A stretch of 62,461 nucleotides of DNA, filler included, from Hausera hauseri (taxonomy: Eukaryota): NCBI GenBank assembly GCA_046269625.1. It is 10 parts of 10 records of this genome, joined end to end, with 100 filler letters (N's around TTAATTAATTAA, not from the genome) between each part and the next. Parts side by side here need not be neighbours in the genome. Positions count along the whole stretch, not along the records: positions 26,700 to 30,690 come from JBJURY010835081.1; positions 30,791 to 38,244 come from JBJURY010013566.1; 8 more parts are not named here. The stretch is one strand, 5' to 3'. The stretch's first letter is position 1, and each line of letters begins with the position of its first letter. Shown one piece after another: positions 7,463 through 53,394 of this stretch. Made by a program: the position numbers and the translations under genes. The notes below the pieces were generated by a model that was not told the origin of the DNA, made no database searches, and saw only the letters and a list, made by a program, of their open reading frames with translations.

Positions 7463-7463
7463 A

Positions 7464-7490: not shown

Positions 7491-7495
<5 letters not shown>

Positions 7496-11330: not shown

Positions 11331-11429
11331 AAAGAGACACAGACAAACACAGAAGAACTGGTCCAGGTACAGCTACTTATGGAAGAGAGACAAAAAAAGA
11401 AAAAACATGTTATTGATAGAAATAATTAC

Positions 11430-12010
11430 AAAGTGACATTTACTAATGTTTAGGCAGTCATACTGAAATAAAGAACAGTGTCCGAAAATTCAGGCCTCAG
11501 AAGTGAAACTCAGAAGTGTTTACAAACTGACATTCCATACTGTTCAAAAAGCGAATAAAATTCAATTAAAAAAAATAAAAAATGTACATAATAAACAAAA
11601 AACTCATTAATAAACAACATCAAACTGGAGTATTACAGTTACGGTATTACTACTAAATAAACTTATATTACCTACTGTTCAAAAGCAAATACAATAAAAA
11701 CTAATTACAAATGTACCTAATAAACAAAATACTCTTAAAAAAAACAATATCATACTGTAGGACTACTGTTAAGGTATTACTACTAAACAAAGTGACATTT
11801 CCTAAAGTTTAGGCCATCATAGTGAAATAAAGAACATTGTCTGAACATTTAGGCCACAGAAGTGAAATTCAGAAGTGTACACGAACTGACATTTCCTACT
11901 GTTCAGGCCATCGTAGTGAAATGCAGGACCACTTCCTACAGTAAGGCCACGTAGTGAAACTCAGAAGTGTTCACAAATTGACATTCCCTACTGTTCAAGA
12001 AGCAAATAAA
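11430..12010. repeat. Imperfect tandem duplications downstream of the transposase
   Basis: AAGTGACATTT..TTTAGGC..AGTGAAA.TCAGAAGTGT..CTGACATT..CTACTGTTC recurs at about 11430, 11790 and (partially) 11950. Confidence 0.75.
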
Positions 12011-12189
12011 ATAAAAAACTTCTAAAAATGCTACTAACATTTGTAAACTTCCAAGTCAAAAGCTTTGCGTAATTGAATATTTAAAATATGGCTTCTTACA
12101 AATTTTTTAGATAACAACATTTTTTTCTTCCATAAGCATTAAAAAAAGGATCCAAAAAAAAAGAAAAAAGTTAATTCAAATCCTTTCCC

Positions 12190-15100: not shown

Positions 15101-18100
15101 GCAACTCCTACTAAAATGAATTTTATTCTAAATTAAATTACATATTTTTAGTTAGTTCTGTGTTTCTTGATTAGGACCTAATATGGACATGGTGGTTCTT
15201 TGGACTTCACTTTTCATTTATCACAATCAGGACAATAGTATCACTACTGCTGACAGTTGGGCAGAAGGAATTGAGTTATAAGATTAGTGAAAGCACCCAA
15301 ACAGGAAAATAACTGGAAGACCTGCTGCAGTACAACATCTATGGAGTTTGGAAGATCCTGAAGACAATTTCAGTTTACAAAACTTTACTCCAGACCTGCA
15401 GCAGATTCAAGGTGTGTGAATGATCTGAAACCACCTCCCCCGATTCTCCCCAACAGCAATGCCCTCATTACCATTTCACACATTGTTAACATTCCCCACT
15501 TTGGAAGACCCCCAGTGAGTTCTTCAGCCGTCAGTAGCTTTACATAGTGGACAAACAAGTTTAACTAGGATTAAAAAGTGTTGTTGATATGATAAGAACT
15601 GGTGTTGGTATTCCAACGTCGACCATTTGCCGATTATTAGTGCCCTTATTATCATCTATTGTTGAAGGAGTCAAACTTACAAACACCATGGTGGGAGGGA
15701 GACACACCTCCCAGTGCTAATTCATGCTCACTCAAGTCGTTCTGAACCCTCGTACAGCTGGGGGAGGGTGGGCCACTGTGCGCCTGACCCAGATTGTGTG
15801 TGAGCAATTACAAAAGCATCAAATTCATTATGGTGGTATCGATATGAGAACAGGTATCGTCTTGGTATTGATCGTTTCAAGCCCTGAAATATCAAGGCCC
15901 ACCCCTACAACAACAAACAAATCAGTAGAGAATTGCTGACAAATGTACCTGCATATGTTTGCTCTTCTCCATCATCTTTGTAGAATGAGTCATCACTATC
16001 CTGTAACACAAATATAGAACATTAAATATTATTCCACTTTTCCTCCTTACAAACCATCAGCATTACATAAACATTGATCCAAACGTTTATTTTAATGTTA
16101 ATGTTTGAATACAAAATTTAAATCAAACATTAAAAATTCAAGTGTAATTTGTTTCACGTTGCACAATACATATATATCAATAAATCTATAAATTTTACAG
16201 AAGATACAATTCAGAGATGCAGCTTTTCTGTGAAGAAGGGCAAGAGATGCAAATGTGTGAAGTGTAACTTTCAAACAACATTCCAAAGCATACATCTCAC
16301 AAATTCCAATTATTTCACTATGAATTTTCTTAAGAATTCTTCTTGTTCAGGTTGGGGTTTACAACCCACCTCAAGGCAACATAAATAGTGAAAACCTTGA
16401 CTTATCAATGGCATGGAACAACAATATCCAGATGTACTATCCATTATCACGTGGGACTTTAAAATAGGAAAATTTAAACATGAACTACCAAAATATAAAC
16501 AGAATGTTACCTGTTCCACCAGAGAAAATAACAGACTGCATCACTGCTTCACCTTTTTAAAAGACACATATCACTCAGTCCACTGTGTTACTATGGGACA
16601 CGACAACTGTTTGATATTGGTCCAAAATACAGGCAGAAACTGAAATGTACAAAACCTTTAGTTAAACTTCACCTGAGGCGGAAAGCATAAACTACTGGAC
16701 TGATTTGAATTAATCGAGTTGAACATCTGCGGATCTACAAATGACAACATGGATCATCTCGCTGACTCTGTGATATTATCAAGTAATATAAACAATAAAT
16801 ATTTGTGCAAAGACCTTCTTCACGTTGGCAACAAGGTAAATCTTAACTTGGTGCACAATGACACTCATGTCCTCAGTGGGCCAGGGCTGAAGCCTACAGG
16901 ACTGTGAATAAAGGCCAAGAACACACAAACAAAACACATCACAGCAGCTCCCAAAAAGTCCAGTTGAAACCACAAAAACATGTTTTCAACCAACGATACT
17001 GTATCAGTATGAGGAGGACTCGTTGACATCACAAACTGCAGCAACTCCTTCTATTCAGTGTAGTAAACAAAGGCCTGGCTGAATATCTGAGTGACTTGTT
17101 TGGAAGGTTTAGGGACACATTCACACCTCCTAACTACTCACACTCAACGTCAGCTTCCATGCATATGGGGGCACTCCTGCCCCCACCTTTGGTCACCCAA
17201 GTTGTACCAAATCCAGAGGAGCCAGAGACAGGAAACAACATGCTTTGTGATGGTGTTTTCCAGTGATGTATGAAGTTACACAAAGTGATAGTTGAATAAA
17301 AGTACAGGTATCTTACCCAAACATTACTTTTAGTAATATTACTTAAAGTAAAAGTGTAAAGTATATGATAATTGTTGGACTTAAGTATTAAAAGTTAAAG
17401 TACTGATTTAAAATTAGCAGTAAGATTTTCTGTAATGACATTTATTAGGAAAACAATGCAGACTGCTAATTAGCTAAACTAGCTAATTAATTTATGTCTA
17501 ATTTAGGATGCACTAGTCAAAATGTTTCAATTTAAAAACATATATCACAGCTGCACAAACATTTCTCCCCAAACTAAAAATGTAGCTGATCAATGGTGCC
17601 AAATGAAATAATGTAATTCATGAAATCCAAATACTTACTAAGTACAGGTCTTTTATTTTAATGATTATGTCAATTTTTATGTTATGATATGTACAATATA
17701 TGTGGATAGTACTTATTTTTTGTATGTGCTTCAATAGAAAGCGGTTTACTAATTGTTTTTAGAATAAGTTTTCAGCTTTCCTCTGAGTTATCTATTTAAT
17801 TGCTTAATCCACTAAATCTATGGAGCTGTTTTTAATATTACACTCCTTCCATACTGTTGGTTGTCTGTGTGAATGAATAATGAAATACCCTACTCATGTG
17901 AGAACTTAAACATTGAATCACTTTGAACAAGAAGTGCATACCATGTTGCTTACCTGATTTTCGTCAAGAATATCACTGTCAACTTTGTTTGCTCTTCCAT
18001 TCACTCGTCTCATTTCAGAATTGTCTTGCGACATCCCCTGTGAGATCAATATTGAAAAACCATAACTTGTTATTTTGAATAAAGACAATTGCAACTATAT

Positions 18101-19307
18101 GAGACTGAAAGATTTAATATTGTTATTACATTAATACTACAACAAGAAGTACGGAAAAAGATTGTGCCTTTCAGTTGTGCTGACATATAATTTGGTAGAC
18201 TAAAACCGTTTCCTTCTGCCCTAACAAATAGCTAAAATGTATGTTAATTGTGTGCATTTTTCAGCTTAGTCTTTCAAAAAAAAAAAAAAAAAGGCTTTAC
18301 ACACGTGTTGTCTGAGGCCATAATGTAAAATATTAAAACATGTGTTTTGATCAAACATGCAGTACTAGTAGTCTTTTAACAGAAACATTTTTTACTCTTA
18401 CTAGTACATTGTCTTGGGTGTATATCCGTCCAAGATGTAAGCTTCCTACATTTGCTAACATTTGAGACTAATCTTGTGGTACTTTCGGTATGGTACTAGG
18501 ACTTTACACAACACGCTGCGTGTGCATTCTGTTTATGTACCTTAAAAACATCCCCTAGCAAAAATTAATGTTTACTGATGAGTATAAAGCTGAGTAAGTT
18601 CATAACTGAGGAGCAAATCTCAGAGAAAACTTGGAATTTCTTCGATTAATTTCTGAAATCTTTACCAAAAATCAAGTAAATTTTATGCGTTTGTTGTGAG
18701 TGACTGGAGCACTAAGTTAGTGAGTAAACATTATTTAAATAGCCCCTTTCGTGGACATGAACATCACAAATTCACTTTTTCTGTTATGTGCGTAACAACA
18801 GCAAAAACAAAATCAAAAGATCCAGAGACCTTTATTTTGAAATATCCGGTTACCTAAACAGGATATTTAACCCCAAACTGTGTAAATTGACAGTGATATT
18901 GCATGTCTGCATAGAGTGATGAAAAATGTTTTTCTCAAGGCCCCGTAGGCTAATCATTTCGGATGTTCCTATTGCTAGTCACTCAAGCGCTCTCACCCTT
19001 ATATGTGGCCAAGCAGAGTTTGTTCATAAAATGCTTGAAAAGTGTAATTCGGAAATTATTCTCAGAAATTCTGAGTTTTTGCTCGTAGATTTGCTCCTCC
19101 TTTTTTTCCATCTGCAAACCGGCCCTAATACGCCGTCGTAGTGTTTATACATACCTTATTGGTATCCACCAGTCCGTAGCTTTTTTTCCGTCCAAATTTA
19201 CGTAAATGGTCATAGTATGTAGTTTTACACACAACTTCTCTACAGTGGTCACAGTACATGTACCTGGGTTTTCTTTTATATTGTTTTTTAACTGGCGTAC
19301 TCATCAT
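12190..19307 (-). CDS. EnSpm/CACTA (CMC) transposase, Transposase_21-like, 4 exons: complement(join(12190..15002,15949..16000,17954..18037,19155..19307))
   Basis: Motifs DVFDGQIWKDF, LMLNVDWFQPY, NLPREERF, IPGPHEP, SDIPASRK, GCSKC, IDPMHNIL, FSFERCNG. The three introns are GT..AG with compatible phases (0,0,1). Exon 1 carries a CxxC...H zinc-finger-like segment. The reading frame is intact. Confidence 0.9.
15280..15480 (+). mobile_element. Rex1/Babar LINE fragment in a transposase intron
   Basis: Degenerate LEDLLQYNIYGVWKILKTISVYK. Confidence 0.5.
16400..17200 (+). mobile_element. Rex1/Babar LINE remnant (endonuclease-to-RT linker region)
   Basis: IITWDF..LPKYKQNVTCSTRENNRLHHCFT.LKDTYHSV..YRQKLK matches the Rex1/Babar pattern (IIxGDFN..HVTCPTR..LDHCY). 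Confidence 0.7.
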
Positions 19308-19580
19308 GGTGTCCTGCTACAGATATCAAAACAGTAGTGATGAGTAGAATTCATATACTGTTTTAATAATAATGTTATAATCTACTCCACCTATACCAAT
19401 GCTTTGTGGTTCATTTGATTGGTTGTTCACCCCCTGCGCAGCAGTAGCGTGCATTTTCATTGGCTGCTTCCTCTAGCCGATCACATCAAATCCACAGGTA
19501 GCCGCGCAGGTTAAATTACGGTCCAACGCTGAGTTTTGGCCAATTTTGAGTTGAGTTCACACCGAGTATTAGCCTACGGA

Positions 19581-21579
19581 ATGTCTGGAAAAAAACGACT
19601 CCTCGCCATGTCTTCTGACTCGGAGGACAGCGATGTCGGAGGTGATGTCAGCGTACGCCGAAGAACCGACGAAACCCCTATGTGTGGGTCTTCAAAGGGC
19701 GGCCAAGTAAAACGGCGCATCGTTGGATCCAGAGGGAGAACTCAAAGTCCGGAGATTGGTGTCACAATACACGATGTGTGGAAGTAAGTAGATATATTTT
19801 TACGCCCTGTAAGACCTCATTTTGTAATAACGCATTATGTGAAAATGTAGCTGACAAAGCCAGGTTTCAAAATATAATAAACTCGCGCTAAAACCGGGGT
19901 GTAGGATGACCATCAGCAGCGGAAGGGAAAGGGGCAGAATGCAAATGAAAGATGTGTGCTGCAAGTCAATGTAAAAACATGATTCAGTCAGTTTGTTTTC
20001 TGTTATGGTTCTGTTCCAATTTTCTCATTCATTAACTACAATGTTGCAAAACACAACTTAATATGTTTCAGGGCACTGTCCGAAATAAGCAAAAGGATGG
20101 ACAAGATGGAGGAGAACCGGGACCGGAAACTGGACGAGCTTACTGAGGCTGTTGCAGACATAAAAGACCAATTGGTGACAGGAGCAGCAACAGCTGCAAC
20201 TCGAAACACATCAACGATCATCCCCAAGGCCCTGTCTGTAGGTTATAAGCCTGTGTATTGTTCTTCCCATAAATTTATAATGTCTGTCGAAACGGATCTA
20301 TGATCTGATTAAAGTACAATGGCTATGGATTATCATTCACTTACTTTTGTGTAGGTAGCTACCTAGGGGTAAAAACATTTAGAAAATGGAAGACAACAAA
20401 AACTTCATCAACGTCTTTCTCTTGAAAGGGATGGAGAACTATTGAACTGCATTTGCAATTTAAAATAACTGCCTAAGTGGTTATCATCATTATGTTAAAA
20501 TATTTTGTTTTTAGACAATGTAACACACCTTGATCTCTGTGATTGTTTTTTTTAGCGTGAAGTAAAACGGATACACAGGAGTCTGGAGGAAGAACGTAAA
20601 TACAGGGGAAATGAGAGGTAAGATATAACTAAACATGTATTAGTCTTTCGTCTGATTACAAGGTCGCTGATCAATATTTTTTCCTCCAGAGGGTACAGCG
20701 GCATCGCTGAAGGAATTTTTAGAAATTTATTTCACAGCTCCACTTTGTTTGAACTGTTGAACAAGTTTTGTAAGGCTGACATGACCCTTTTTGTCTCCAG
20801 TCCTTTAATATTTATGCACTGGAAAAAATATGTTCTTTATGATAGCAGTGTCCAAGCATTCATTTTTTTATTAAGTGCCTCACCTCCCGCCCCACTGTAG
20901 GGACCACTGCTTTAGTTCCAAACAATGTATCACTTTAAAGAACTCAAAAACCAATGTTTATGGCAGCTGTTTGATATGTCATAGTTTATGTTGCTTTATT
21001 CATTTCAGATTTCTTTAATGTAATCTGCAGGTTTACGTCTGAGCACAACAGCGATGTCACAAACTCGGTGTCACGGACAATTCTGGATGCGGAGGAATAT
21101 GATTCCTCTTTGATAAGAAGTAAGTTATGATTTTAAAATTGGTTTTACCTGAGACACTAGGTTTATTGTAGTGCATTTTTTCAGGCAGTTTAAAAAAGTA
21201 TAGGTATTGTACATAAACTACTTTCTGTGAAAAACAAAATGTACCCATATGTGAACAACTGGTCAGTGTTAATGGATTAAACTAGAAGTTTATAACTGTG
21301 AAACAAAGTATCCGAATACTGTTCAATTCCACAAAAAGACTAATGGTAATGGTAGTTTATTTGTATAGCACTTTTTAGCAGCAAGGCCATACAAAGGGCT
21401 TCTATATAAATACATACAAATGATAATAAAATACTAAGTGCAGACAAATGACATGTCACTTGGTGTTAGGAGCCTGCAACAGATATTTCGAAAACATCAA
21501 GAGGGAATCGAAGTTGACCGAGGACAACAGAATTGAAGAGGATCGCAGAGCCAAAGCTCTTAATAACAGAAGGCATAGG
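19581..21579 (+). CDS. Spliced accessory protein of the CACTA element, C14orf93/DUF4616-like, 3' truncated: join(19581..19783,20072..20237,20556..20617,21031..21119,21470..21579)
   Basis: Five exons with GT..AG introns splice in frame. Coiled coil, then IPKALSREVKRIH...FTSEHNSDVT...ACNRYFENIKR...NNRRHR, resembling C14orf93-family proteins. Divergent from the transposase, with about 270 bp between start codons. Confidence 0.7.
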
Positions 21580-21680
21580 GTGAGTTGACCAACAGTGCTT
21601 GTTGACATAAAATTATAAAAAATAATAAATAAAAAAAAAACATATATATATATATATATATAATATGTGTGTATATACAC

Positions 21681-21780: not shown

Positions 21781-22610
21781 GGAAACGACGGATTCATTTG
21801 TAATGACGTCGACATTTTTGTAATTTCGTCATTTGGTCATTTTGTCAGTCCCACCCATGAACTGATTGTATGTCTTCACCACCGCTGGACAGTCAACTGG
21901 TATACGTTTGTGCTGCTTGGCATCATAACGTAACTCTGTTGTATCGGGATCTAATATGTACTTTGTTGAGAGAAAGTAGATCGGCCGTTTGTCGCACCTT
22001 ATGAGAGCTGTAGTTTTACCGTTGTACATAACTCGGTGTGATCCACGTTGCATTTTCTGCTTGGTGGAGATCTTTTGGAAACCGTTTTCTATTTGTCAAG
22101 GCCGTTCCGCACATGTATGTGTTCTGCTGTTGAAGATGTTCAGCAACGTTCACTGAAGTGTAAAAGCGGTCTGTGAAGACACAGTGATGTCGGCCCTCAA
22201 ACGTTTGTAGTAGGCGGTAAACCAAATTTCCTGTAACACCAAGTCCTGCATGTTGGTCTGTTTGTACTTTACCAGTGTAGATTTCCGCATTCACAATGTA
22301 GCCTGTTTTGCTTTCACACAAAAGAAACGCCTTGAGTCCCCATTTGATTGGCTTGTCCTTGATGTATTGTTTGATACTAATCGCATTTTTGGTGGGAATC
22401 ATTCCTTCATCAAGTGACAGCTCGCAGTCAGGCATGTAGAATTCTTGAAAGTTTACGAGGATGTGATTGAAGATTGGTCGGCTTTTGTAGATCTGATTTA
22501 TCAAGATCTGGATCCTGTTCATCAGCACAGTGCAGCATCGACTAGATGGCAAGAAAGCAATCACAAGTGATGACTTTAGTAAATCCGGATGTAGCTGTCA
22601 ACGAACTATC
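21781..22610 (-). mobile_element. piggyBac (PGBD4-like) transposase remnant
   Basis: LSLDEGMIP, KQYIKDKPIKWGLK, EIYTGK, VFTDRFYTSV and YNQFMGGTD cover the DDD triad; frameshifted. Confidence 0.92.
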
Positions 22611-22624
22611 CTTCTTTTTCCCCA

Positions 22625-23842
22625 CTTAGGCCCCACTTGATGCGATACACATATGCCAACGAGTAATCCAATCATCGAAACACTTGTTATATGCACTTTG
22701 CAGTATGGCCTTCAGCTCCTTCTGTGAATTATGTTTAATGGCTTCAATGGTCTGAAAACGTCTTCTGCGAAGTGGTTATTTGTTTGAAGAGGAAAAATTC
22801 ACACGGGGCCGTATCTCGTGAATACGGTGTTTGGTCGATGACATTTGTTGAGTTTTTGGCCCAAAACTCCTGTATAAGGATTGGTGTGTGAGATGGCGTA
22901 TGGTCCTGGTGAAAAATCCAAGAATTGTTTACCCACAAATCTGGCCTTTTACGGCGAACATTCTCTCAAACGCTTCATAACACCCAAGTAATGTTTGTTG
23001 ACTGTTTGCTTCTCTGGAAGGAATTACGAGTGGACAACACCACGACAGTCAAAGAAAACAGTCAACAGGACTTTGATTTTTGAACGACTTTGACGTGTTT
23101 TTTTTTTCGGTTTTGGATCGTTATTGAAGCGCCATTCCGAAGATTGTTGGCTGGTTTGCGTGTCAAACTCGTAAACCCACGTCTAGTCACCCGTTATGAT
23201 GTGTTTTATGAATGTAGTGTCCGAATTGACTCGTTCAAGCATGTCTTCAGCAACCTGTTTCCGGTACTCTTTTTGAAGAAAATTCAGCTACTTCTGAACA
23301 AGCCGTGCTGCAACGCGTCTAATACCCAAAACATCAACCAAAACAGTGCAAAGGGATTCATGAGATATGTCTACATCCTGAGTCATCTCTCTTAAGCTTC
23401 CATGACGATTTTCCATCACCACTTGCTTCACTTTGTTGATGTTTTCATCAGTTGAAGATGTTGAAGGTCGACTAGAACGAGGCAAGTCTTCAATCACTTG
23501 TCGGCCTTCTTTGAATGCTTTGTACCACTCGTATGATCGTGTTTTCGATAAAGCTGACTTACCATAAGCCTTCAACATTTTCCATGATTCAACACAAGAT
23601 ATTTCATTGGCAACACACAATTTGAGGCAAACTCTTTGTTCGATATTTTTATGCATTCTAAAAATAGCAAAACAAACTTTAGGTCAACTAACAAAACAAA
23701 CACTTTAAACAAACTACTTCACAAATAGTGACGAAACTGTATGTGACAATCAGGTACCAACTTAACAGCAAAAATTTTCTTTCATAACTTTTACACGGGC
23801 TTTTTAAATAAACAAATCCCAGTATTTATTTGACAGAATGTA
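22625..23842 (-). mobile_element. Mariner transposon remnant with 5' TIR
   Basis: EQRVCLKLC..YEWYKAFKEGR..DLPRSSRPST, WIFHQDH, PYSRDTAPCEFFLF and CFDDWITRWHMCI. TA + CATTCTGTCAAATAAATACTGGGA TIR-like end at 23842; 3' TIR absent. Confidence 0.9.
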
Positions 23843-24499
23843 TGTACAAATTGTAAAAATTGTGCACGGAAAGTTAACTAAATATCTGTATTTGGGTGAG
23901 ATTATGAAGTTTAACATGGAATTTTTCGTCAAAAGCTCAGACGTAGACTTTTACTTACGTCTTTATTTGTATTCATGATTTGATCGTATGCAAAAAGCAG
24001 TGTAAAAACGGGCACTGAGACAAACCCTATTCCACTCCCATTAAGGTTACATGAAGTCAATGTTATGAGTAACCAAGGTAATGAGTCATAACTGGGATCC
24101 ACAGAATTTCGCGGCAAAAAATAGATTTTACACGACACAATTTCATAAATTCCGCGGCAAAATGAACAAAAAGAAATCTTTATCAAAATGTCAATTTTTA
24201 TAAATAAATTATTTTCGGCACGGCTTCAAAAGTGACAAATTCCACGACCCGAGGAATTTCGTGGGCCCTAGGCATAACGTTTCACCCATCAAGGTCATAG
24301 GAATCATAAACAATGATGACCAACACCTTTATGACTCTTATGACCCTGATGACTCTCCTTTCAGACTCAAATGGCCTTGATGAGTCATATCTTATAACTC
24401 TTATGACCTTAAGGAGGTAAGGTAAAAAATTCTATTTCTAAACCGTATAATACAAACTTCAAAATTGGCGCCGTTGTATCCATTTAAATCGAGTGAATG

Positions 24500-25650
24500 T
24501 TTTTCTGTATCGATGCAGCAAATTAACAGGGGACCTTACTACCCCACCTCAACGTCTGAAGAAGACAATGCCAAAGATAAACACGAATCACCAAAAATAT
24601 TGAAGATAGCTTAACGACATAACCATGCAACGAGAAATGCTGCGACTTTAAAGCACTTAATTTGAGCTCAAGAAATGCCTGAAAGGTTTTCAAGCTTCTT
24701 TCATAGAAAGGCATTGATCAATCAGTTCCATCAAAGTCAAGCATATACAAAGCAACTGTCGAAGCAGCTGAAAAAATCAAGTTCAAAATGAAGGAAAGTT
24801 TGAAAATGGAACAATGGGTTTTGCGTTTTGATGGGAAATATTTCGTTTAAGATGTCGATAGAAAATTATCGGGCTCAAATAATTGCAACTGGCATCACAG
24901 AAACACTAGATTGTTATGAATTATGGTCAGTAATAAAAATGCTGAATAGCGACAGATTTGCTGTAAACACCAATAAACGAAATGGCATTGTTTCAATTTT
25001 ATAACGGCATTTATATCTTTAAGTTCACCAATTCCTAAATATATTGGTTACCAACGTCTCATTCTTGATAGAATACTTAAGCACGTGATGGATGAAATTT
25101 TGGAATGTAAAAATCAAAAATTGTCAATAAAAAAGTCAAAAATTGACTCATTGAACTAGGAATTCATCCAAATTAATAATTCAACTGTGAAACTCGGTGA
25201 TATAGGTTGGAGATTACATGAGATTCTTGCTAGAGCTTCGTCGGTCTTTTCGGTTTTATTAGGACAGAAATGAATTCCCATCCATAAAATGTAGAACTTT
25301 ACCAAGATTGAGTAAGCCCGATGGAACTTTGGGGAAATATTCGGAATGTTGGCTTCCATCCTGCTACCAAATCAACGAGAATGGATAATTTCCATTTGTC
25401 AATATATTTCGGATGTCTCGATGGATTTAAGGTTTTCAAATCAAACATCCAACCCTATTTTATATAAGGTTGGAAGAAGCCATGCAAAATTTTTTACAAA
25501 GAAAAAATTTTCTTTAAAATTCATTGGTGACGAGAATCTTCAAGAATCAATACACAACGAACTAGCATTTGTGCGAAAAGGGTGATCCATCTTTTGTAAA
25601 CCTTACATTGCCTCAGAAATTACACTACAAACAACCGGTTTAACCAAGGT
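24500..25650 (+). mobile_element. Degenerate hAT-like (hATm-type) transposase
   Basis: WVLRFDGK, IKMLNSDRFAVNTNKRNG and IGYQRLILDRILKHVMD resemble the LHxDGK / DTTxxNTG / CxHHxLD motifs. Many stops. Confidence 0.5.
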
Positions 25651-26188
25651 AATGATGTTTAATTTGCTATGAAGTCTAGTGATTACGTTCATAATTAAAT
25701 ATCTGGCTTTTACACTTTCCTTTTGTTTGATGGAAGAGATTTCTAAAAGCAAAATGAATGCAAAACTTATAAAAGGAATATTTAGGTCACGTCTGATATT
25801 GTAAGATCATGGCCGAATCAAACTTCACTAAAAAGTCATACCCGTACTGCTCACATTGCTCGTCTGACTTTTCTCACTAAAGCCGTCCCTCGAACTTGTC
25901 TCTTGACATATCTTTACGATGTCCCACAAGTCAACTCTCATTGATTCCCCGGTCGTCAATTTATTGTTATCACAACTTCGGTAGCGTAACAACTTGTCGG
26001 TTTTGTTCAATATTTTCCTTTATATTTGGTTTCCGTCATTTTCCTGATAAATTTTCATTCAAATTGACATCTTAAAATTTGTCAAAATCATCGTAGCCGT
26101 AAATTTTTGAAATGCCTACATATCCGTGCTGCTTATGCCGTTGTAAATTCAATTAATGAATTAATTTCACATTGTGTTCTCATTTTAA

Positions 26189-26394
26189 CCCTAGGGGGTC
26201 AGAAATTCTAACAATCACACGGCGTCAGCTGATCAAGAAATGTGACAAACTGAGCATAGAATTTGGTAGCAAAGAACTGTTGCAATAGTGCAACACATGT
26301 CCCAAAAGGCATAGAAACGCACGTAAGCTCAAAATTAGATAACTGCAAAGTGTTATTAAACCGTTGCAAATTTGCAACTTCTGAGCCCATAGGG
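26189..26394. mobile_element. piggyBac-type MITE (206 bp)
   Basis: TTAA on both sides (26185-88, 26395-98). TIRs CCCTAGGGGGTCAGAA / CCCTATGGGCTCAGAA match 14/16. Confidence 0.8.
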
Positions 26395-26599
26395 TTAATA
26401 GTTCATTTTGACGAAAAAACTTCGTTGTTTTATCATCTAAATTCAGTAAATTGATGTTTAACACAAAATTGTTCAATAATAATTTATTTAATACAGAATT
26501 GGAATTATAATAATTTAAATCATGTGTTCTTTCGTCACCAGGAAAATGTTTCTTTTAAGTTTTTCTTTCTGGAATTTTAAATTTGACTAAATTCAAATC

Positions 26600-27102: not shown

Positions 27103-27977
27103 TGTTATATTTTGGGGTGGCCCTTATACAACTCCCACTATATAACAATAAGTACACTTGAGATTTGAGTACCTTAATGCAGGTAAGGTTTACCGTTATC
27201 GAATAGACAGATTGTGCCTTATAACAATTAGTTTAATAAGTAATGCTGGTACTCATTAGCGGTTCTGTGCAAAAATGTTTAACAAAATTCTTCTCTTAAC
27301 TATGTAATTTTACAGTAGAATTTTAGACCTTAGTGTAGTCAAATCATCCTTAAAGGGCAATGAAAAACTATATAAGATTTTTAAAATAACAAATATATTT
27401 TACAGCAAAAATAATTACGCAGCTCCTGAATACAACTCCGGTATCGGATTCAAATCAACTGGTTAAGGAATCAATCCATAGCAATAATAACTTCAACGAA
27501 TTAGTGCTCCTTTCAGTTTCTGAATATTTTGTCTTCTCAACGATTCAACAGTTCTGCAACAATAGTTCAGCTTCTTGATAATTCTCAATTTAGCTTCTTA
27601 ACTTCTGTAAGGAAGTTTAAATAAACTCCAAATAGCTTCAAATAAAAACTCAAAAATTTCGTGTCTGCTACTCGCTTATATACTAATACAACTGCGTATG
27701 TGACTGATTTCATTTCATATTCTTGGAATTATAAACAGCCTTTAGCTGAATTTTTCAGTATTATCCGATTTGAAAATTAATATAAATTCAACGCGTTTTC
27801 CAAAAATTCTAAAAAATGTACCAATTTATTGCTAAATTCCATCTTTATATTTGTACAAATTCCTAAGTTTGTATAATAATGGAAAATATCACAAAATAAT
27901 AAATATTTGCAATATGCTGCTTATAATAGTATTTATAATTTTTGGACGTCTTCGCAATATTGGACGTCTTTACAACA
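27103..27977 (-). repeat. Probable 3' LTR of the contig-4 element
   Basis: On the minus strand a short purine tract AAGGAGAAA is followed by TGTTG..., a TATATAAG box near 27675-27682, and ...TAACA at 27103. The distal end is tentative. Confidence 0.5.
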
Positions 27978-30536
27978 TTTCTCCTTGAGCGGCATCCTCG
28001 GATGTGCCCATTGCGTCAGGAGAGATGACGCCATAACGTGGTTGTCTTAGGAGATTTATTCGTCTACGTAAGCTCACTTCTGAGTCCGTATTTGGCTGAG
28101 TTTCTCGGGAATTTGTTTCCAATTCATAACTGTAATGGGGTTTTATTCGAACTACACGGGTATAAGTACCGTTCGAAAAGTATTTCAGTTCCGTTGCTTC
28201 GGTTCTACACACCGGGCAGGTGGTTTTGCCATTATCTAGGGTCTATTTTTCCAAGCAATCTCGGCAATATTTGTGTCTACAATCCCGATTATGCAAAACA
28301 ACGTATCTTTGACTGAGATTCGCTTCACATATTTGGCATTCGCCTTCCTCTTTATCCCATTTCTCGTCATCTAAATCTACTTTTATTTTGAACTTTATGG
28401 GTTCGAATATGAGACCATCTTTATCTTGATATAGGTAACCATGGATTCTATTTTGTTTGGTGTTTACAGAACTCTTTCTAGGGTCACAACCTATTGGTAC
28501 TAAGATCCAATCGGCGATGGTACCTCGATCTAAATAGGAATTTCGCCATCCGTTTGATACTTTTGATACTGTTTTTTCAACAAAGCTTTCATTTGTTTGT
28601 CTACTGACACTGTTAACTTGCCGTTTCTTTTCGATATGAAAACTGGCGCAATATACCTTCCTATTTTAGGATTTTCCGAAATGTAGGTGTTTTCGTATAC
28701 TTCTCGAGCTGGTGTGGTCTTCATGAAAATCATTGCTTCTTTAATTTTCTGGTGACTATAATACTCGGTAGATATTAGCATCTTCGGGTAATCCTTAGTT
28801 GTTGCGAAGTGTACATCTTCTTGGGAATTCCTTTTTCTTAGGATATTTACTTCCGGGAACAGTTGTTGAAATCCGCTCTCTAGGTTCTTGTGCTTGTATG
28901 TTTTTCTTTTGGGTTTTTCTGAGATTGTCATTTGGTCATTTGCGGACATCGCTGCGATTTCTCTTGCTATCTCTGAAATTTCGGGTTCTTCGTTTGTTTT
29001 ATCGGTTTGATCTTCTTGAGCTTGGTTTGAACTTGTTCCTTTATTTTTCTGTCTGAACAAGTAACCATAGAAGGATAATTTTCTTTTGATCGGGGAAATT
29101 TGTGTTCCAGCTTTTTGCTTTTGCGGTGGAATCTTGGGCACTTTGAATGTCTAGATTTCTTCTATTTTTTGATTGTAGATTTCATTTCTGGAATTGGTTT
29201 GACATTGGAACTATAACTGGTTCTTAACACATTGGTGCACGATTGATCTGATTTTTGAATAGTTATTTTGATATTATCCTGTCCCATGGGTTTCACGACT
29301 CTACACGGGGAATACGAACGATACTGCTTCCGACAATTTTTATTCATAGTTTCCAGGTCGGATGTACTTCGTAAATTTTGTTCTGAATTACTGGGTGTCC
29401 ACTCATGGTCCTATTTTAAAGCTACGTAAATGTCGCGCAAGTAGTGAGTGCGTTGACTTGCGGTTAACAGTTTGCTAATCTTAACATGTTCGCTGTTCGT
29501 GGCGTCAACCATTAATTTGAAATAGGCATCCATAACTTTTGGCTAAGATAATTCCTTTCCCGTAATATTTGTTTACTTTGTTCGGTGACTTTTGGGCGCG
29601 TCCTTATTTCATGAATTCCTACGATGCTTGACATGGGTATTTCTAAGAGTTCGACAATGCTATCGATGCAATATCCAGTTATAATATATACATATAAACA
29701 ATGTTCTAACTCGGCCTGAACAAGTTTGATATCTCTACCTCTCGAGAGTGTTTCCTTACGAATTCCTGTCGTATTATAGGATGTTTCGCTAGCACGTTTT
29801 CTCAGTCTGATAATCGTACAATATACTTCTGTTCCGTTGGTTTCTCGAACTGAGACTTCCACTGGGATCCTCTGTGAGCCATCTCCTTCTCCAAAATTGA
29901 TTGCTATGATTCTGGTATTTCTGGCATCTTTTCCTAGTCTACACGATTGTAAGAAGGTGTCCAAATCCTTTTCTGATATAGAGGTAATCATCGTGCGTTA
30001 CCTCGAACATTAATTTTGCAGGAAGGGCCGTTACTCTGAATTCTAATTCATAATGCTGTAAATTTTCGCTACGTAAGCTGAGAGTACTGAATCTGTATTG
30101 TTTTCCGTTGTTTGTGTTCCATTCTTGGTCTTTGAACCGGTAGTATATTTCACCATCTGCCAGGTGGATATAAATAATTTGTCAGTTCCTGTACGTGATC
30201 ATCTATTTAAGTGAATATGCTCGGGCATCTTTGTCTTCTCTGATGGCGTAAAGGTAAACAATCCTATTTTCTTACGTTATACCCTTTAAATTGTTAGGAA
30301 TTTTACTCGTCTGATCATACTTCACAAAGGTTTTCTCGTGTAATTTCTTATGCATTTCTCTATATATTGATTTCGAATTTGGGAGAAAGACTAGCGTAAT
30401 TCTGCAAGAACTCGTCAATACTAAGTAGGCGTTTTGGTGATTTATCGATTCCACATAGTTCTCGTTCTTGGATAGATCGTGGTCCGTCGATGCAAGGTCG
30501 TCCGGTATCCGTTTTCGTATTTCTCTCTTTACTCAT
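27970..30536 (-). pseudogene. Retroelement accessory gene (about 850 codons, disrupted): shared N-terminal domain + DEDDh-fold pseudo-exonuclease + low-complexity linker + C3HC4 RING finger
   Basis: ORF-track pieces join through stops and frameshifts. IPNNLKG is shared with 33728..35035. IIAINFG..IPVEVSV..GTEVYCTII..TTGI exonuclease-like core at about 29415-29915. CQIC-x15-CRHKYCRDC-x12-CPVCR at 28204-28338. Confidence 0.75.
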
Positions 30537-30690
30537 CAGTCTAAAAAATAAACAGTAAGGGTTAATCCTGCAACGAAGGATGGTTTTAAAATAAAAGCAA
30601 TTCTTCGTTAGATGATAGAATAACCCGCTCTGTAGTTGTCAGGTTATTTCATCATACGCATAAATAGGGGTTTCCAATTTCCTTAGTTCC

Positions 30691-30790
30691 NNNNNNNNNN
30701 NNNNNNNNNNNNNNNNNNNNNNNNNNNNNNNNNNTTAATTAATTAANNNNNNNNNNNNNNNNNNNNNNNNNNNNNNNNNNNNNNNNNNNN
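30691..30790. other. Artificial contig spacer
   Basis: N-TTAATTAATTAA-N. Confidence 0.99.
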
Positions 30791-33631
30791 CCAGGAACAC
30801 GCAATGCGAATGCAGATTATTTATCAAGAATGCCTGACATACCCAAGCCAAAAGAAGTGGTTGCGGCGGTATGGAGTATGGATGGATCCGTAGAGAAAAT
30901 AAAACAGAACCAACAAGAAGACATGGAAATAAAGGCAATTAGAAATTATATACAGAACAAAGTATTACCGTTAAATCGAGAATTAGCTAGACATTTGGCT
31001 CGATTTAGTGATGCCTACGAAGAAAAAGATGGATTTTTATACTACATCCATCAGAATGGACCAACCTTAGTAATCCCAGAAAAGAACAGAACAGTGTTAT
31101 TGACGCAATACCATGACGGACTATTAGGTGGTCATCAGTCAGCAAGAAAAACGATAGCCAAATTAAAAAGGAAATATTTTTGGCCCACGTTAATAAAGGA
31201 CGTACAAGAATGGTGCGATAGCTGCAAACTATGCGCTACGCGCAAGAATGCCGGATCGAAGTTCAAAGCTCCCCTTAAAGTATGGGATAATCCGCCAGCT
31301 CCATTCGAGTTTACAGCTATGGACATAACAGGTCCCTTACCATTAACACGAAATGGAAATAAATACATTCTAGTTTTTATAGACTATTTCACTCGATGGG
31401 TAGTAGCGTTACCAATGGCTGATATGAAAGCTGATACAATAGCTGAAAAATTCGTGGAGAATATAGTGTTCAATTATGGAGCTCCAAGAATCTTATTAAC
31501 AGATCAAGCATCTAATCTTACGGGTAACGTAATGCAGGCGATATATGATATTATGCGAATTCTAAAGTTACGCTCAACACCAGGACATCCAGAAAACAAC
31601 GGGATGGTAGAAAGATATATCGGTGATCTAAAAAGCAAATTACAAACGGTTGTTAGCTCTCGACAGGACGATTGGGATGAATACATCAACGCCTGCGTAT
31701 TTGTAAATCGAACATCAGTGCATGAGGCCACTAAGGAAACACCATTTTATTTGATGTACTTAAGAGATGCTCGACTACCTATTGATTTAGATTTTAACGT
31801 CAAGCCCACATCTCATTTAATGGAGATAGAAGAGTATAAATTATTAATGCAGGAGCGCCTTCAACTAGCTTACAAAATAGTGAAAGATAATCAAAAGGAT
31901 TATAAAGCCACGTATAAAAAGTATTATGACGAAAAAACAAAACAACCTAAGATTAAAGTCGGAGATAAGATGATGCTGCATGTGCCTCTGAGTAAAAAGG
32001 GAAAGACATCCAAATTGGATAGACCGTATAAAGGCCCATATGAAGTAGAGAAAGTGGATCTACCGAATCTCTGCCTAAAGAAGAACAATACTATATTCAA
32101 AGTTCATGTGAATAGATGCAAGCCCGCAGCCAAGGAAAGTAAGCTTAGACAAGACGAACAAGATATAGTAAGAAGTATCAAAGATAAATCGACTATAGAC
32201 CATAGATCCTATGAACCAAGAAAACATTTCTTGTGGTTAATATTAATGTTACTGCCACAAGTGTTGAGCCAATTAACTAAGCAAGAAATTGAGCAAGCCA
32301 AAATACGACATGCAATAGCTATAAATGAAGATTTAATGCTAAAAAGTTTGAGGTATCATATGACGTACACTATGAAAGGCCAAAAATGTGCAATCTGGCA
32401 TACTACAAGACAAATGACCAGTGACTATATGATAGGAATACAAATGATCCCTCGGAGTGACTATGAAAGGGATCCTAATGAACGACAGTACGACTGTATA
32501 CTTCACCCAACCGTGAACGAGACACAATGCTCATTAGAAACTTCCGGGACTCATGCGGTATACCTTACGCTTATAAAGAGAAGAGGGGATTACTATCGCA
32601 GTCTATATACTAAATTCAGTAAATATATTAAAATTCCCCATCGATCTGAAATGAACGAGACCTTATTAGACGAAATTATACTTAAACAATTAAGAATAAG
32701 ATCAAAGGGATTCAAAAGTGGACGTAGTTGCATTGAGGTCATGAGTATAATAGAACTGGAATATATTCGATGGATAACGATATCAATAAAGGCAGTAGAT
32801 AGCAAGCAAAAGTCAAAATGTGAAATTACGTACGAACAGCAGCATGTATGCTGTAACGTAATAAGAGGTAAAATATATAACGTAAATTATACGTTATCAC
32901 GAAAAGAATACGGAAAATTCAAAGGAAAAATACGAATAAAAGGGCCAACCATGTATATTAGGTACAAAAACAAGGTAGAGTACGATGAAAAGGTTGGAAA
33001 TGTCACAAAACCGTCTAGGGTTATGGAGCCACCCGTACACGCTCCGTCGAATAGTGAACGGAGAGACATGACTATATTAATTAAACCATATACATCATAT
33101 TACCGACAAAAGCGCTCAATATGGGAAAACGTTACAGTTACGACTACCCCAACAGCCCTGATAATGTCAATAAAACCCGACCTTGATTTTGCGAAAGTAA
33201 GATTTGTTTGTAAATTAAAAGACATAATAGTAGCAAAGGGATACATAACCCCTGATGATCTAGTAGTACCCTGCGCAGCACTCAGACCTAATACCCAATA
33301 CACCGTTATACTTCAATTAGTTGATGATAATAATAAAGTAACATCAACCAAAATACTAACAGCTATTACTCGAAAAGAAATAAAAACCCTAGAGTTACAT
33401 AAGAAAGGTGTTATTAAGTATGTCACCACTCAAAGGCCGACAAGAGCCGTGTATAAGTATTCCCGAATAGAATTAATAATAGCAGGTGTTTGTACCCCCA
33501 TAGTATCGATGATATTAGTTTTAATAATAATAAAAGTAATATCGTACGTACGACGACGTCGCAAACAATCATGGATCCGAATAGACTTGCGACGTATCAC
33601 GAATACCTTGGAAATCGATAATCCAAGCTGA
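30791..33631 (+). CDS. pol: Ty3/Gypsy Pol C-terminal part (RNase H tail, integrase) fused in frame to an env-position membrane protein; 5' truncated
   Basis: Frame open from the contig edge: PGTRNANADYLSR; HHCC (YHD..GGH..CKLC); D-D-E (AMDITGP, LTDQA, NGMVER); GPY motif (YKGPYEV). About 470 further aa contain HFLWLILMLLPQVLSQ, RQKR, LRPNTQYTV, a TM helix and RRRRK. Confidence 0.93.
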   Translation, partial: PGTRNANADYLSRMPDIPKPKEVVAAVWSMDGSVEKIKQNQQEDMEIKAIRNYIQNKVLPLNRELARHLARFSDAYEEKDGFLYYIHQNGPTLVIPEKNRTVLLTQYHDGLLGGHQSARKTIAKLKRKYFWPTLIKDVQEWCDSCKLCATRKNAGSKFKAPLKVWDNPPAPFEFTAMDITGPLPLTRNGNKYILVFIDYFTRWVVALPMADMKADTIAEKFVENIVFNYGAPRILLTDQASNLTGNVMQAIYDIMRILKLRSTPGHPENNGMVERYIGDLKSKLQTVVSSRQDDWDEYINACVFVNRTSVHEATKETPFYLMYLRDARLPIDLDFNVKPTSHLMEIEEYKLLMQERLQLAYKIVKDNQKDYKATYKKYYDEKTKQPKIKVGDKMMLHVPLSKKGKTSKLDRPYKGPYEVEKVDLPNLCLKKNNTIFKVHVNRCKPAAKESKLRQDEQDIVRSIKDKSTIDHRSYEPRKHFLWLILMLLPQVLSQLTKQEIEQAKIRHAIAINEDLMLKSLRYHMTYTMKGQKCAIWHTTRQMTSDYMIGIQMIPRSDYERDPNERQYDCILHPTVNETQCSLETSGTHAVYLTLIKRRGDYYRSLYTKFSKYIKIPHRSEMNETLLDEIILKQLRIRSKGFKSGRSCIEVMSIIELEYIRWITISIKAVDSKQKSKCEITYEQQHVCCNVIRGKIYNVNYTLSRKEYGKFKGKIRIKGPTMYIRYKNKVEYDEKVGNVTKPSRVMEPPVHAPSNSERRDMTILIKPYTSYYRQKRSIWENVTVTTTPTALIMSIKPDLDFAKVRFVCKLKDIIVAKGYITPDDLVVPCAALRPNTQYTVILQLVDDNNKVTSTKILTAITRKEIKTLELHKKGVIKYVTTQRPTRAVYKYSRIELIIAGVCTPIVSMILVLIIIKVISYVRRRRKQSWIRIDLRRITNTLEIDNPS

Positions 33632-33727
33632 CGGTGGATAACAAGGATTGTAATCTACGCAATCCACTTATGTCAGATAGCTGAACGTCGTATAGCTACC
33701 CCTTTTATATTTAATAATAAAACTACA

Positions 33728-35035
33728 ATGATTACCGATTTTAAATTGATAACCGTTGTATTATTGTTAAGCTTTTTAAACCTCCCATTGACTAATTTCG
33801 TTACAGATATGCTGGACATACAATCAATTCAAAGAAGCAAAAACTGGTATGAGAATGCCAAGACACACCTCATCAACGCCAACCCAACTAATCCATACCA
33901 TGTTATCCTCAATGAATCAACGTTTAGTCTAAACTATCCTAAATTACAACAGATCCCCAACAATCTAAAGGGATACTCATGCCACAATCGGTCACTCGCC
34001 TTAATACAAATGACCAAAGCTACATCGTTTTTCATATCGGAAATAATAACACTCCCTGAAAAGTATTTTGCTATTACCATTTTCGATATCGTTGGAAAAT
34101 TTCAAATTAAGACCAAAAATATCAAAACATCCCAACAAGGAGATCTTATTAACTTGGACCCCAATAACGGTGTAACGATTGATATCAAATTTATAACAAA
34201 AAATACTTTGAAAATTCGGTCATTGACAAATCGTATAATGTTCGGTATCGAAATCTTACGACCAGAACCCTTCTGGACGACTCCTGAACATGGAAAGTGT
34301 TTCAATTTAACCGAACCTGATTATGCGAAGTACACCGAAATTCCATACCGACGTATCCCGGAAATAACTAATGATGATATTGTGATAGCAGCCGTGAACC
34401 TCGCGTATGATCAGGACAACCAACTAACACCTATTGAATGTTCTGTCCTAGACATACATGGAAATTCAGTATTCTACACAATCATAACGCCACGAAAAAG
34501 AATCAACAATTACGACACCCACATTACCGGCTTGACCGAAGCTCAAACGAACAACCAGATGGATGAGAACACTTTCTTCCAGAAAATATCAATGCTCCTC
34601 AATGATAAAATGATAGTTGGAGCCGCAGTTTTGGAAATGCTGACCAAATACCTGAAATGTCCATTACGCCGAATTTTAGGTATTCGTGATATTCTATATC
34701 ACGACGAAGTAGCTCAAAAATATAAAATGGACAGACCCAATTATAAAGAATTGGCCAAACGTTTTTACAATATGAGAGCCATGCCGTTACGTAGTACGGC
34801 ATTGGCACAGTGCTATCAAGCCATTTATCGTACGTTACGATTTGATGACGAACTCATTACCGAAGCCACGGCCTCCGACAGGGTCTTAAAAAGACCACCA
34901 GAAGTAACAACACGAAAGAGAAAAATTGTGATTGAAGAAGAGGTGCTAATTGATGGAGAAATATATACTCCCGATGGACTTCGTTACAGGTCACAATCCG
35001 GTAAAACGATATTCCGAGCGTTGCCAAACCAATAA
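33728..35035 (+). CDS. Retrotransposon accessory ORF with DEDDh (REX4/ISG20-like) exonuclease fold lacking catalytic acids; likely start 33809 after a splice acceptor
   Basis: IECSVLDIHGNSVFYTIITPRKRINNYDTHITGLT...ISMLLNDKMIVG...IRDI...YKELAKRF follows the REX-family pattern. The ORF is intact and lies between pol and the LTR. Confidence 0.78.
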   Translation: MITDFKLITVVLLLSFLNLPLTNFVTDMLDIQSIQRSKNWYENAKTHLINANPTNPYHVILNESTFSLNYPKLQQIPNNLKGYSCHNRSLALIQMTKATSFFISEIITLPEKYFAITIFDIVGKFQIKTKNIKTSQQGDLINLDPNNGVTIDIKFITKNTLKIRSLTNRIMFGIEILRPEPFWTTPEHGKCFNLTEPDYAKYTEIPYRRIPEITNDDIVIAAVNLAYDQDNQLTPIECSVLDIHGNSVFYTIITPRKRINNYDTHITGLTEAQTNNQMDENTFFQKISMLLNDKMIVGAAVLEMLTKYLKCPLRRILGIRDILYHDEVAQKYKMDRPNYKELAKRFYNMRAMPLRSTALAQCYQAIYRTLRFDDELITEATASDRVLKRPPEVTTRKRKIVIEEEVLIDGEIYTPDGLRYRSQSGKTIFRALPNQ

Positions 35036-35074
35036 TGAAAAGTTCGGGACAACTTTCTTTAACCCCCCTCTATC

Positions 35075-35855
35075 TGATGATTTGACAAACGACAAACTTT
35101 AGTTTATAAATGACAAACTTTACTTTAAATCCATCATCCGGTTGATTAACATTATTATAAACAGACTCTTTTGATCTTAAATGATTACGACAATTATTAA
35201 ACCATTTCTGTTGATCATATGATCACTTTCTTAATATGATGATCAATTATTGCATGTGACGGTCATTTACTGAAGCTATATGTATAATTTTATGGTATGT
35301 TTATGTATTTAATCGACGTTATACGTTATCAAACGCTACTATAAATACTACACTCTTATTGTAAATGGACACAAGTTTTCAAACGTCTATGTGGTTTTAT
35401 TGGTACGTGAGTTTATCTTTTATTGTAATTGAGCATTTATATTTTGACGATTAATATATTTTACGGTATTACGAATTCTTATTTTACCTAAGTAAATTAG
35501 TAATTGAATAAAACTTAAGTAATTTGGAATAACGCCGTCTAGGTCCAACCTACCTAACGGCAGCCCGTCTAATTTTTATAATAAAGAGTGTCAAATAATA
35601 CAGTAGTAACTAAGGTATACGCCCCACAGGCAGAGTGTCCCCTTCACATATTACCTATAAGCTATAATTAGGTAGGATACGCATTCAGTAACAACTCTAT
35701 CACGACTTTGTTCACCCCTTTAACTCAATCAAGTAACAATAATAAAAGTCTCTCCCATTTCCTAGGTTAGAGGGAACTGAACATAATTGCTTAACATTAT
35801 CTGCCCTGTATTTTAAGGGTACACATTTTATACCAAATGCCATCACAGCTCATCA
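35075..35855 (+). repeat. 3' LTR (781 bp)
   Basis: Begins TGATGA and ends TCATCA (perfect 6-bp inverted termini). TATAAATA at about 35340 and AATAAA at about 35507. Mariner coding sequence starts abruptly at 35856. Confidence 0.7.
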
Positions 35856-36250
35856 GAGGTGTTTTGCTTTATGAGTTCAAACTTGGAAGTTCTGCTGCGG
35901 AGACCACCAGAAAAATGTGTACAACATTTGGAAATAATACTATAAAGGAGCGCACAAGAAGAAAGTGGTTTGAGAGATTTAAAGCTGAAGATGAGTCTGA
36001 ACTACCATTGAAGGAGATAGTAGTCTAACCTGTCAGGAACTTGCGCTGATATTCCATGTTAAAATTGTCACTATCCGAGATCATCTGCATAAAATGGGCA
36101 AGACGTAAAAGTTGAGCAAGTGGGTTCCACATGCATTTTCTGATGCCAATAAGAAACGGATGACGGCTTGCTTTGCCCTGCTCTCCCCTCATCATATCGA
36201 ACTTTTCCTTAATCGTTTGTTGACTTATGATGAAAAATGGATCCAATGAT
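35856..36250 (+). mobile_element. Mariner transposase remnant (insertion target of the Gypsy element)
   Basis: RGVLLYEFKLGSSAAET..RKWFERFK, HLHKMGK..KWVPH and LLTYDEKWI. Confidence 0.85.
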
Positions 36251-53333: not shown

Positions 53334-53394
53334 TATGAAAACAGTACTCATGCCGTAGCAATATTTTTGTGTGGCGTGCATATAAACAAAAAAA

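Follow-up and report, generated by a model that had tools for sequence, protein, structure and literature searches.

A gene for a predicted jelly-roll and ISG20-like exonuclease fold, with active and catalytically altered forms, at the 3′ end of Gypsy-type retrotransposons

Exonuclease genes carried by long terminal repeat (LTR) retrotransposons have been described from rotifers, where the extra open reading frames (ORFs) are, in the available text of the reports, intact DEDDy enzymes (PMC5408684, PMC5718144). A wider accessory cargo marks the planarian element Burro/GYPSM1, in which an in-frame env is combined with TRAF, MATH and RING genes representing apoptosis and ubiquitin modules; the accessible part of that description names no exonuclease or jelly-roll gene (PMC6431247), and Burro is, according to an excerpted account, silenced by PIWI (PMC8532177). 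Among host proteins, PML joins a RING to a catalytically dead DEDDh domain and, in the sections available of two sources, binds nucleic acid (PMC13659232) and promotes degradation of L1 ORF1p (PMC10123124). Here we describe an accessory gene of Gypsy-type elements found in 62,461 nucleotides of DNA from Hausera hauseri (assembly GCA_046269625.1; hereafter the window, meaning this whole stretch, ten contigs joined by spacers), located on contig A (26700-30690, minus strand) and contig B (30791-38244, plus strand). The gene is predicted to encode a metal-less jelly-roll followed by a dead ISG20-like fold, and in these matters of anatomy and selection our confidence is high.

On each of the two separate contigs the gene is the last before an LTR, and both contigs hold only the 3′ end of an element, the gag–env–reverse transcriptase part being missing. 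The genes are homologous (tblastn 26% identity over 114 residues, E 1e-7) and have an IPNNLKG block in common, in keeping with the first-pass annotation of this DNA, which had noted homologous, very diverged ORFs sharing this N-terminal block; its assumption of an ORF on each contig holds for contig B, where the frame is intact (33728-35035, plus strand), but not for the broken copy of contig A, with its five in-block stops and frame changes. A HMMER search of 1.84 billion proteins returned 52 matches, 43 of which were judged, by reading the sequences, to belong to the family and nine to be host REX4/ISG20-like proteins. The AlphaFold model of the window protein (that is, the contig B product), built on a 42-sequence alignment, has a mean predicted local distance difference test (pLDDT) score of 84.5 and a predicted template modelling score (pTM) of 0.77. 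Model, profile and alignment place an ISG20/REX4-like DEDDh fold at residues 217-375 (34376-34852, plus strand), which superposes on human ISG20 with a Z score of 17.7 (root-mean-square deviation 2.5, 155 residues aligned; Foldseek E 5e-9), bearing out the REX4/ISG20-like core that had been read from the sequence by eye. The family profile matches ISG20L2 (E 9e-31), ISG20 (E 1e-18) and SDN1 (E 2e-17), an Atlas search with the window protein retrieves RNase_T clusters, and the modelled exonuclease domain of an active relative, P0008, resembles ISG20 (Z 18.4) far more closely than RNase D (Z 9.6).

The N-terminal domain (residues 28-181; 33809-34270, plus strand) is predicted to be a cupin/AlkB-like jelly-roll, residues 21-181 of the model forming a double-stranded β-helix whose best matches are ALKBH6 (Z 13.7), ALKBH7 (13.0) and ALKBH5 (12.4), with viral 2-oxoglutarate (2OG)-Fe(II)/replicase entries heading the results from the BFVD viral library. 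For the corresponding domain of P0008 small cupins (Z 11.5) are level with or ahead of ALKBH6 (Z 10.5), and a profile–profile comparison of the N-terminal domain with six bacterial AlkB proteins was blank, so that the domain is not called AlkB, and descent from either AlkB or a plain cupin is compatible with the model; an Atlas search with the P0007 N-terminal domain gave weak cupin/2OG leads only, below the acceptance bar. No HxD/E metal motif is found in the window domain, nor is any HxD/E column conserved across 37 relatives, active or dead (the motif occurs somewhere in 10 of the 37 rows, spread over 11 columns with at most two rows in each), and a dioxygenase function in any family member is therefore unlikely. 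Behind the exonuclease fold, a C-terminal tail of low confidence runs to the stop codon (34853-35035, plus strand; pLDDT below 50 across most of residues 385-435). A C-terminal beta motif that had seemed by eye to be shared was rejected, the window protein scoring 5.4 bits and P0001 7.5 against 8.9 for the best of 740 shuffles.

The active site was compared across 47 family rows (42 of the 43 HMMER relatives, P0053, P0054, two loci and the window protein) and seven host rows; the fragments P0040 and P0055, the host-like P0035 and P0043, and the cluster mates P0056-P0058 were left out, and counts use the 41 family rows that cover all five positions, six others falling short of this. The window protein keeps none of the five catalytic residues, having A222, N224, M304, L354 and L359 in their place, and the reported absence of the ExoI, ExoII and ExoIII acids and of the His is upheld for the intact copy. 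The full set of D, E, D/E, H and D is present in 22 of the 41 family rows, and the other 19 retain one residue or none, with no row at two to four; all seven host rows retain the five. ExoII carries Glu in 15 of the 22 active rows, and ExoIII has His rather than Tyr in every one of them. To judge from the aligned residues, then, catalysis has been lost in part of a family that is not uniformly dead, and the relatives with all five residues are likely 3′–5′ exoribonucleases. The first-pass annotation had taken the altered site to define the family, naming retention of the DEDDh acids by other copies as a finding that would tell against this; such retention is seen in the family at large, and not in the window's own lineage. 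Its reading of a D-to-N change in ExoI arose from a two-residue slip: A-V-N aligns to D-x-E, so that Asp has become Ala and the Asn stands at the Glu position.

Among the 19 dead rows, P255, R256 and D279 are conserved without exception. Nine of them (P0003, P0012, P0021, P0022, P0026, P0039, P0046, P0053 and P0054) carry K, R or H in place of the ExoI Glu and also Glu in place of the ExoIII Asp, a pairing that possibly represents a charge swap within the former metal site and that the window lineage does not have. A Cys/His zinc tetrad was not found among the conserved family columns.

How often the catalytic set was lost depends in part on the tree. In an exonuclease-domain mixture tree of 48 rows the dead label needs four changes, only one of which is forced by starred branches; a two-domain tree of 37 rows, with catalytic columns removed and four rows with short N-terminal domains left out, needs five (bootstrap 4-6), two of them so forced. 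The dead P0021 clusters with active members at 99/98 in the two-domain tree, and a single dead clade is marginally rejected (p value of the approximately unbiased test, p-AU, 0.035; LG+G4). The host outgroups, which form their own starred clade in the exonuclease tree, are active, which makes loss a more natural direction of change than gain; repeated catalytic loss, estimated at four to six times, is likely on these alignments. The same substitution had been claimed at first for the two window members; although that claim came from a misalignment, A-x-N is indeed common to the contig A copy, P0025, P0034 and P0001, and a clade uniting the window protein with P0001 and P0025, as joint loss would predict, is compatible with the data (p-AU 0.36) without starred-branch support.

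The intact dead copy is under purifying selection, and decay does not explain the dead form. In residues 28-372 of the window gene, 22 of 28 variants are synonymous where 21-27% would be expected (P at most 2e-8), and none introduces a stop; in the tail 6 of 12 are synonymous, these being the 40 best-supported of about 300 variants (260 more stand outside the count), a choice that favours shared old differences; the early suggestion that the dead protein is a selected one is borne out to this extent. P0001, likewise with none of the five residues, is full length and 57% identical to the window protein, identity being about 60% in each domain and 41% for the tail, and further full-length dead sets persist at deep divergence (besides window/P0001, these are P0003/P0022, P0012/P0046 and P0039/P0053/P0054). 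In the active copies L004-L006, the ratio of nonsynonymous to synonymous rates is 0.02-0.04 for the exonuclease and 0.09-0.15 for the jelly-roll. Four public runs contain the stretch or part of it, no RNA run being listed among them; in one of these (X1) the depth is 84 on a 741-base contig that matches the gene exactly, against about 5-10 on the flank, and diverged relatives are abundant, so that the element looks multicopy and young in that run.

The contig A gene, all on the minus strand and preceded by an acceptor-like TTTTTTAG at 30548, presents a second form of the family. It consists of a broken N-terminal jelly-roll part (29984-30548; 45% identity to residues 68-206 of P0025, three stops), an exonuclease-like part with a dead ExoI, A-I-N, and a frame change near 29550 (29415-29967; 44% to P0025 residues 227-366), a linker and C-terminal region (28207-29414; 36-47% to P0025 residues 573-866), and a stop-interrupted C3HC4-type RING finger (about 28338-28207; Pfam zf-C3HC4, E 5e-4). 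The intact P0025, of 870 residues, comprises a jelly-roll, a dead exonuclease, a long linker and a C3HC4 RING (E 2.6e-7), and aligns to contig A in five colinear blocks (30391-27982; 31-47% identity, with the five in-block stops and several frame changes); the small ORFs at 29150-27970 therefore belong together as remnants of a single decayed gene whose end encodes a RING. Between 27970 and 27999 (minus strand) lie a pre-LTR motif, a purine tract and the TG with which the LTR starts (27977), and the final codons of the gene run into this tract and TG (27986-27977). P0025 and the contig A gene end nearly alike (QGGEML against QGEML), which suggests that P0025 too abuts an LTR; the far end of the contig A LTR was not found. 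A word-index protein search with P0025 returned only itself, and the RING form is thus known from two sequences.

On contig B the gene stands behind a Ty3/gypsy integrase (30794-32150, plus strand; Integrase_H2C2 E 2e-19 and rve E 7e-12 in Pfam), the end of a polyprotein cut by the 5′ edge of the contig, which is 38% identical over 535 residues to the Gypsy polyprotein of a related locus, L003; contig A, which begins just before the accessory gene, is without an integrase. The integrase is followed in frame by a membrane-protein-like extension (32213-33631, plus strand) that, as read from the translation, has a hydrophobic signal-like stretch, a beta-rich region with repeats, a basic RQKR site and a transmembrane-like stretch, with no significant Pfam or PDB match. 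A comparable layout lies behind the L003 integrase (about 7700-8935; 22% identity by global alignment), and because L003 has a separate env upstream of its protease the extension looks like a second membrane protein. A putative 3′ splice acceptor (33788-33806, plus strand: a branch-point-like CTAAT, a pyrimidine tract and CAG) ends three bases before the ATG at 33809, and TAATTTT..AG acceptors lie just ahead of the family gene in four of six related loci (L003-L006), so that Met28 is probably the true start and the protein probably has 408 residues; acceptors of this type also precede three of the accessory ORFs in L004. Residues 1-27 (pLDDT about 60) were considered as a signal peptide, a reading rejected because intron sequence is likelier given the acceptor before Met28.

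Ten bases past the stop begins a pre-LTR motif with a C-rich run in place of a polypurine tract (35045-35074, plus strand), leading into a putative 3′ LTR of 528 bp (35075-35602, plus strand) whose inverted ends are imperfect and which contains TATAAA at 35340 and two AATAAA signals, at 35507 and 35580; there is no second LTR on contig B, and the right end at 35602 is set by the inverted terminus alone. The position just before an LTR-like end, which the first reading had recognised, is confirmed by a GGAC..tract..TG pattern behind both genes, which occurs twice when both strands of the window are searched, at 35045-35075 (plus) and 27999-27977 (minus), against a shuffled mean of 0.11, a generous control given that the pattern was fitted by eye on these same two cases. 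A run of C directly precedes the LTR TG in the window (35060-35074) and in L004 (4811-4842), L005 (3002-3033) and L006 (3014-3045), and L001 and L002 carry an ordinary purine run there; plus-strand priming may differ in the C-run elements.

The wider architecture is visible in six related loci (L001-L006) obtained by a locus scan built from active members, on which account all six carry active versions. The pre-LTR motif lies within about 190 bases of the stop in five of the six. In L005 an LTR of about 1.6 kb (3033 to about 4615) is followed by a TGGCGCC primer site, which we take to be of the tRNA-Lys type, and then by a gag with a knuckle. The most complete frame is that of L003 (2-8935), where 2978 codons run through a Monjiviricetes-type fusion glycoprotein, two protease-like repeats, reverse transcriptase, RNase H and integrase, the env lying in frame before the protease (PF24664, E 8e-84). 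The accessory ORFs of L004 (54-2995) encode a RING protein, a TRAF-like protein (RING, zinc finger and MATH) and two coiled-coil proteins, the later ones behind the acceptor motif. Set against what defines Burro/GYPSM1, namely an in-frame env, TRAF/MATH/RING/coiled-coil cargo, reverse transcriptase and integrase kinship, a planarian host and a length above 25 kb, the window elements likely resemble that element, to judge by these relatives; within the window itself, Burro-type cargo is confined to the RING of contig A. Word-index protein searches gave one match for the window protein and five for the family alignment; a metagenome-contig scan with the window protein found no relative, nor did two viral-contig scans. 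The Burro-like context, together with the jelly-roll, the RING fusion and the spliced start, had gone unrecognised in the first-pass annotation.

Retrotransposon proteins that fight host RNA silencing in animals are, to our knowledge, a long-standing question with few candidates. It is proposed here that the accessory gene product is a non-cutting binding or adaptor module directed against host RNA defence, a proposal to which we give an even chance. It draws on the neighbouring apoptosis/ubiquitin modules and viral env, on the control of Burro by PIWI, and on the analogies of the arenavirus exonuclease (ExoN) and PML. The gene would be expressed from a spliced sub-genomic RNA, as the acceptor seen in the sequence would allow. 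The ancestral form, represented by 22 of the 41 relatives, would be an active 3′–5′ exoribonuclease destroying RNA by which the element is detected or silenced, by analogy with arenavirus ExoN and SDN1; several lineages would then have lost the whole catalytic set while the fold was kept under purifying selection; the dead form would no longer cut and would instead hold on to RNA ends or to a protein of the host RNA defence; and the lineage of contig A and P0025 would have gained a RING that tags the held target for degradation, as PML pairs a RING with a pseudo-exonuclease. A more specific version, in which a giant enveloped Gypsy lineage encodes a suppressor of small-RNA silencing whose jelly-roll reads a chemical mark or the end of a small RNA that the exonuclease destroys, with several sub-lineages having each gone over to holding it and one having acquired a RING that marks the bound PIWI/Argonaute complex for destruction, is quite unlikely; if true, an animal retrotransposon would possess a dedicated anti-piRNA weapon at three evolutionary stages. 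The active nuclease, the dead nuclease under selection and the dead nuclease with a RING in any case form a natural series whose members can be compared directly, and should the host prove to be a planarian, which the Burro-like relatives point to, tools for PIWI knock-down and small-RNA work are at hand. Even apart from counter-defence, the family would present an unreported jelly-roll and ISG20-like architecture and repeated pseudo-enzyme formation in mobile elements.

Several observations weigh against this proposal or limit it. Binding of RNA ends by the window protein is not evident from its model, the former pocket being filled by Ala, Asn, Met, Leu and Leu and the exonuclease domain being near neutral (20 K+R against 19 D+E). 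The rejection of a single loss is marginal, long branches weaken every tree result, and in the exonuclease-only tree one loss is all that is forced. The selection test draws on the top 40 of about 300 variants, biased towards shared old differences, and contig depth is a hint that does not amount to a copy number. The RING fusion is present in only two sequences, only one of the window copies is intact, and the context of dead versions is that of the two window contigs alone; because these run from the integrase onward and so lack the diagnostic 5′ part, their Burro-like character is inferred from relatives.

Of the alternatives, service in the element's own cycle, the active form trimming the 3′ ends of element RNA or primers and the dead form acting as an RNA chaperone or particle part, seems to us rather unlikely. 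Processing of 3′ ends was the role first proposed for the rotifer DEDDy ORFs, in the part of the report available (PMC5408684), and the closest sequences to the family are ISG20L2 and REX4-like proteins; the C-run in place of a polypurine tract may also mean unusual priming. That run, however, accompanies active (L004-L006) and dead (window) versions alike and so does not track catalysis, a step central to replication should not be expected to withstand repeated and complete catalytic loss, and the neighbouring cargo (RING, TRAF) is host-directed. That the module restricts other retroelements or RNA viruses sharing its cell, with element or host as the beneficiary, we hold to be improbable: the closest folds are indeed those of the restriction factors ISG20, Plex9 and TREX1, a RING joined to a pseudo-DEDDh is the layout of PML, which acts in L1 ORF1p degradation (PMC10123124, as available), and antiviral roles have been proposed, in the accessible text of one source, for retrotransposon accessory domains (PMC6338049), but the gene stays within mobile multicopy elements, no domesticated copy was seen and no target is known.

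Two further explanations concern the dead form alone. A protein-only scaffold or decoy, binding an active paralogue or the partners of host REX4/ISG20 and no RNA, would suit the non-polar pocket and neutral surface of the window protein and the persistence of family-specific residues among the dead rows, all 19 of which have D279, for example. Retained just as completely is R256, in the substrate-side loop, a basic residue replaces the lost Glu in 9 of 19, which fits phosphate binding there, and no element with both active and dead forms was seen, all of which makes this a distinctly improbable account. Functionless passengers in decay would explain the broken contig A copy and the long branches of dead rows, yet this is very hard to credit beside the synonymous excess (22 of 28 among the best 40 of about 300 variants), the deep full-length dead pairs and the lack of intermediate sites among the 41 rows. 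The proposal of a non-cutting module against host RNA defence is accordingly retained as the one to which the most weight is given.

Other parts of the window bear on its composition. The stretch at 6713-21680 is CpG-poor in comparison with the element contigs and contains an SGNH/GDSL ORF (9155-9760) and a CACTA-type transposase ORF (12190-15015), for which reasons the window may mix organisms. Fragments of piggyBac-like (PF13843) and mariner-like transposases occupy 21781-26599, and a mariner-like remnant, read by eye, lies just past the contig B LTR (35800-36250). At 52973-62461, the ORFs 53439-54074, 55148-55849 and 57375-57736 resemble by eye what we take to be ATPase and capsid pieces of a Polinton/adintovirus; none of the three has a Pfam match.

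Compared with known systems, exonuclease ORFs in LTR elements and pseudo-nucleases in hosts are both established, and the jelly-roll/ISG20-like gene, with its RING fusion and its recurrent dead forms, is a variant that was not found described; full-text literature searches showed no such gene in Gypsy elements, although the primary Burro paper, Repbase or Dfam may already show the ORF. The loci of the relatives are like Burro/GYPSM1 in their in-frame env before the protease (L003), their RING, TRAF/MATH and coiled-coil ORFs and their gag with a knuckle, and differ in that no exonuclease, jelly-roll or membrane-type extension after the integrase is listed in the accessible part of the Burro account (PMC6431247). 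The bdelloid elements Juno and Vesta and the Terminons, as covered by the available text, have captured a DnaQ-like exonuclease ORF3 behind pol, as here, in which Glu may serve as the ExoII acid (DEED), a feature also of 15 of the 22 active rows here; the rotifer ORFs encode RNase D-like enzymes whose DEDDy sites are intact, whereas the present family is ISG20/REX4-like DEDDh, joined to a jelly-roll and about half dead (PMC5408684). Of the precedents first cited for such captures, the rotifer one therefore stands and the nematode one does not, the word 'nematode' occurring nowhere in that text and no case emerging from the literature search. ISG20, ISG20L2, REX4 and SDN1 are closest in fold and sequence, and these host exoribonucleases are without the jelly-roll, form their own clade and are catalytically complete in all seven rows. 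Exuperantia (Z 10.1) and ESRP1 (Z 10.3), like Maelstrom, have a DEDD fold without the catalytic set and match the window model far more weakly than ISG20; they are host genes, and the Cys/His zinc tetrad is not conserved in the present family. AlkB-family proteins, viral AlkB included, give the best fold match to the window N-terminal domain, but their metal motif and profile similarity are absent here. The arenavirus nucleoprotein offers a DEDDh domain used by an RNA parasite against innate sensing and was a weak Atlas lead (0.86); in the portion of the source available its exonuclease is active and zinc-binding, and it is not a close fold match to the window protein (PMC7968707). PML (PXL), in the available text of two sources, unites a RING and a dead DEDDh of active ancestry in one protein, like the RING form described here (PMC13659232, PMC10123124); PML is a host gene with an N-terminal RING in a RING, B-box and coiled-coil (RBCC) arrangement and a TREX1-like domain, whereas the present gene is element-borne, with a C-terminal RING and an ISG20-like domain, and the resemblance is one of convergent layout, not of membership.

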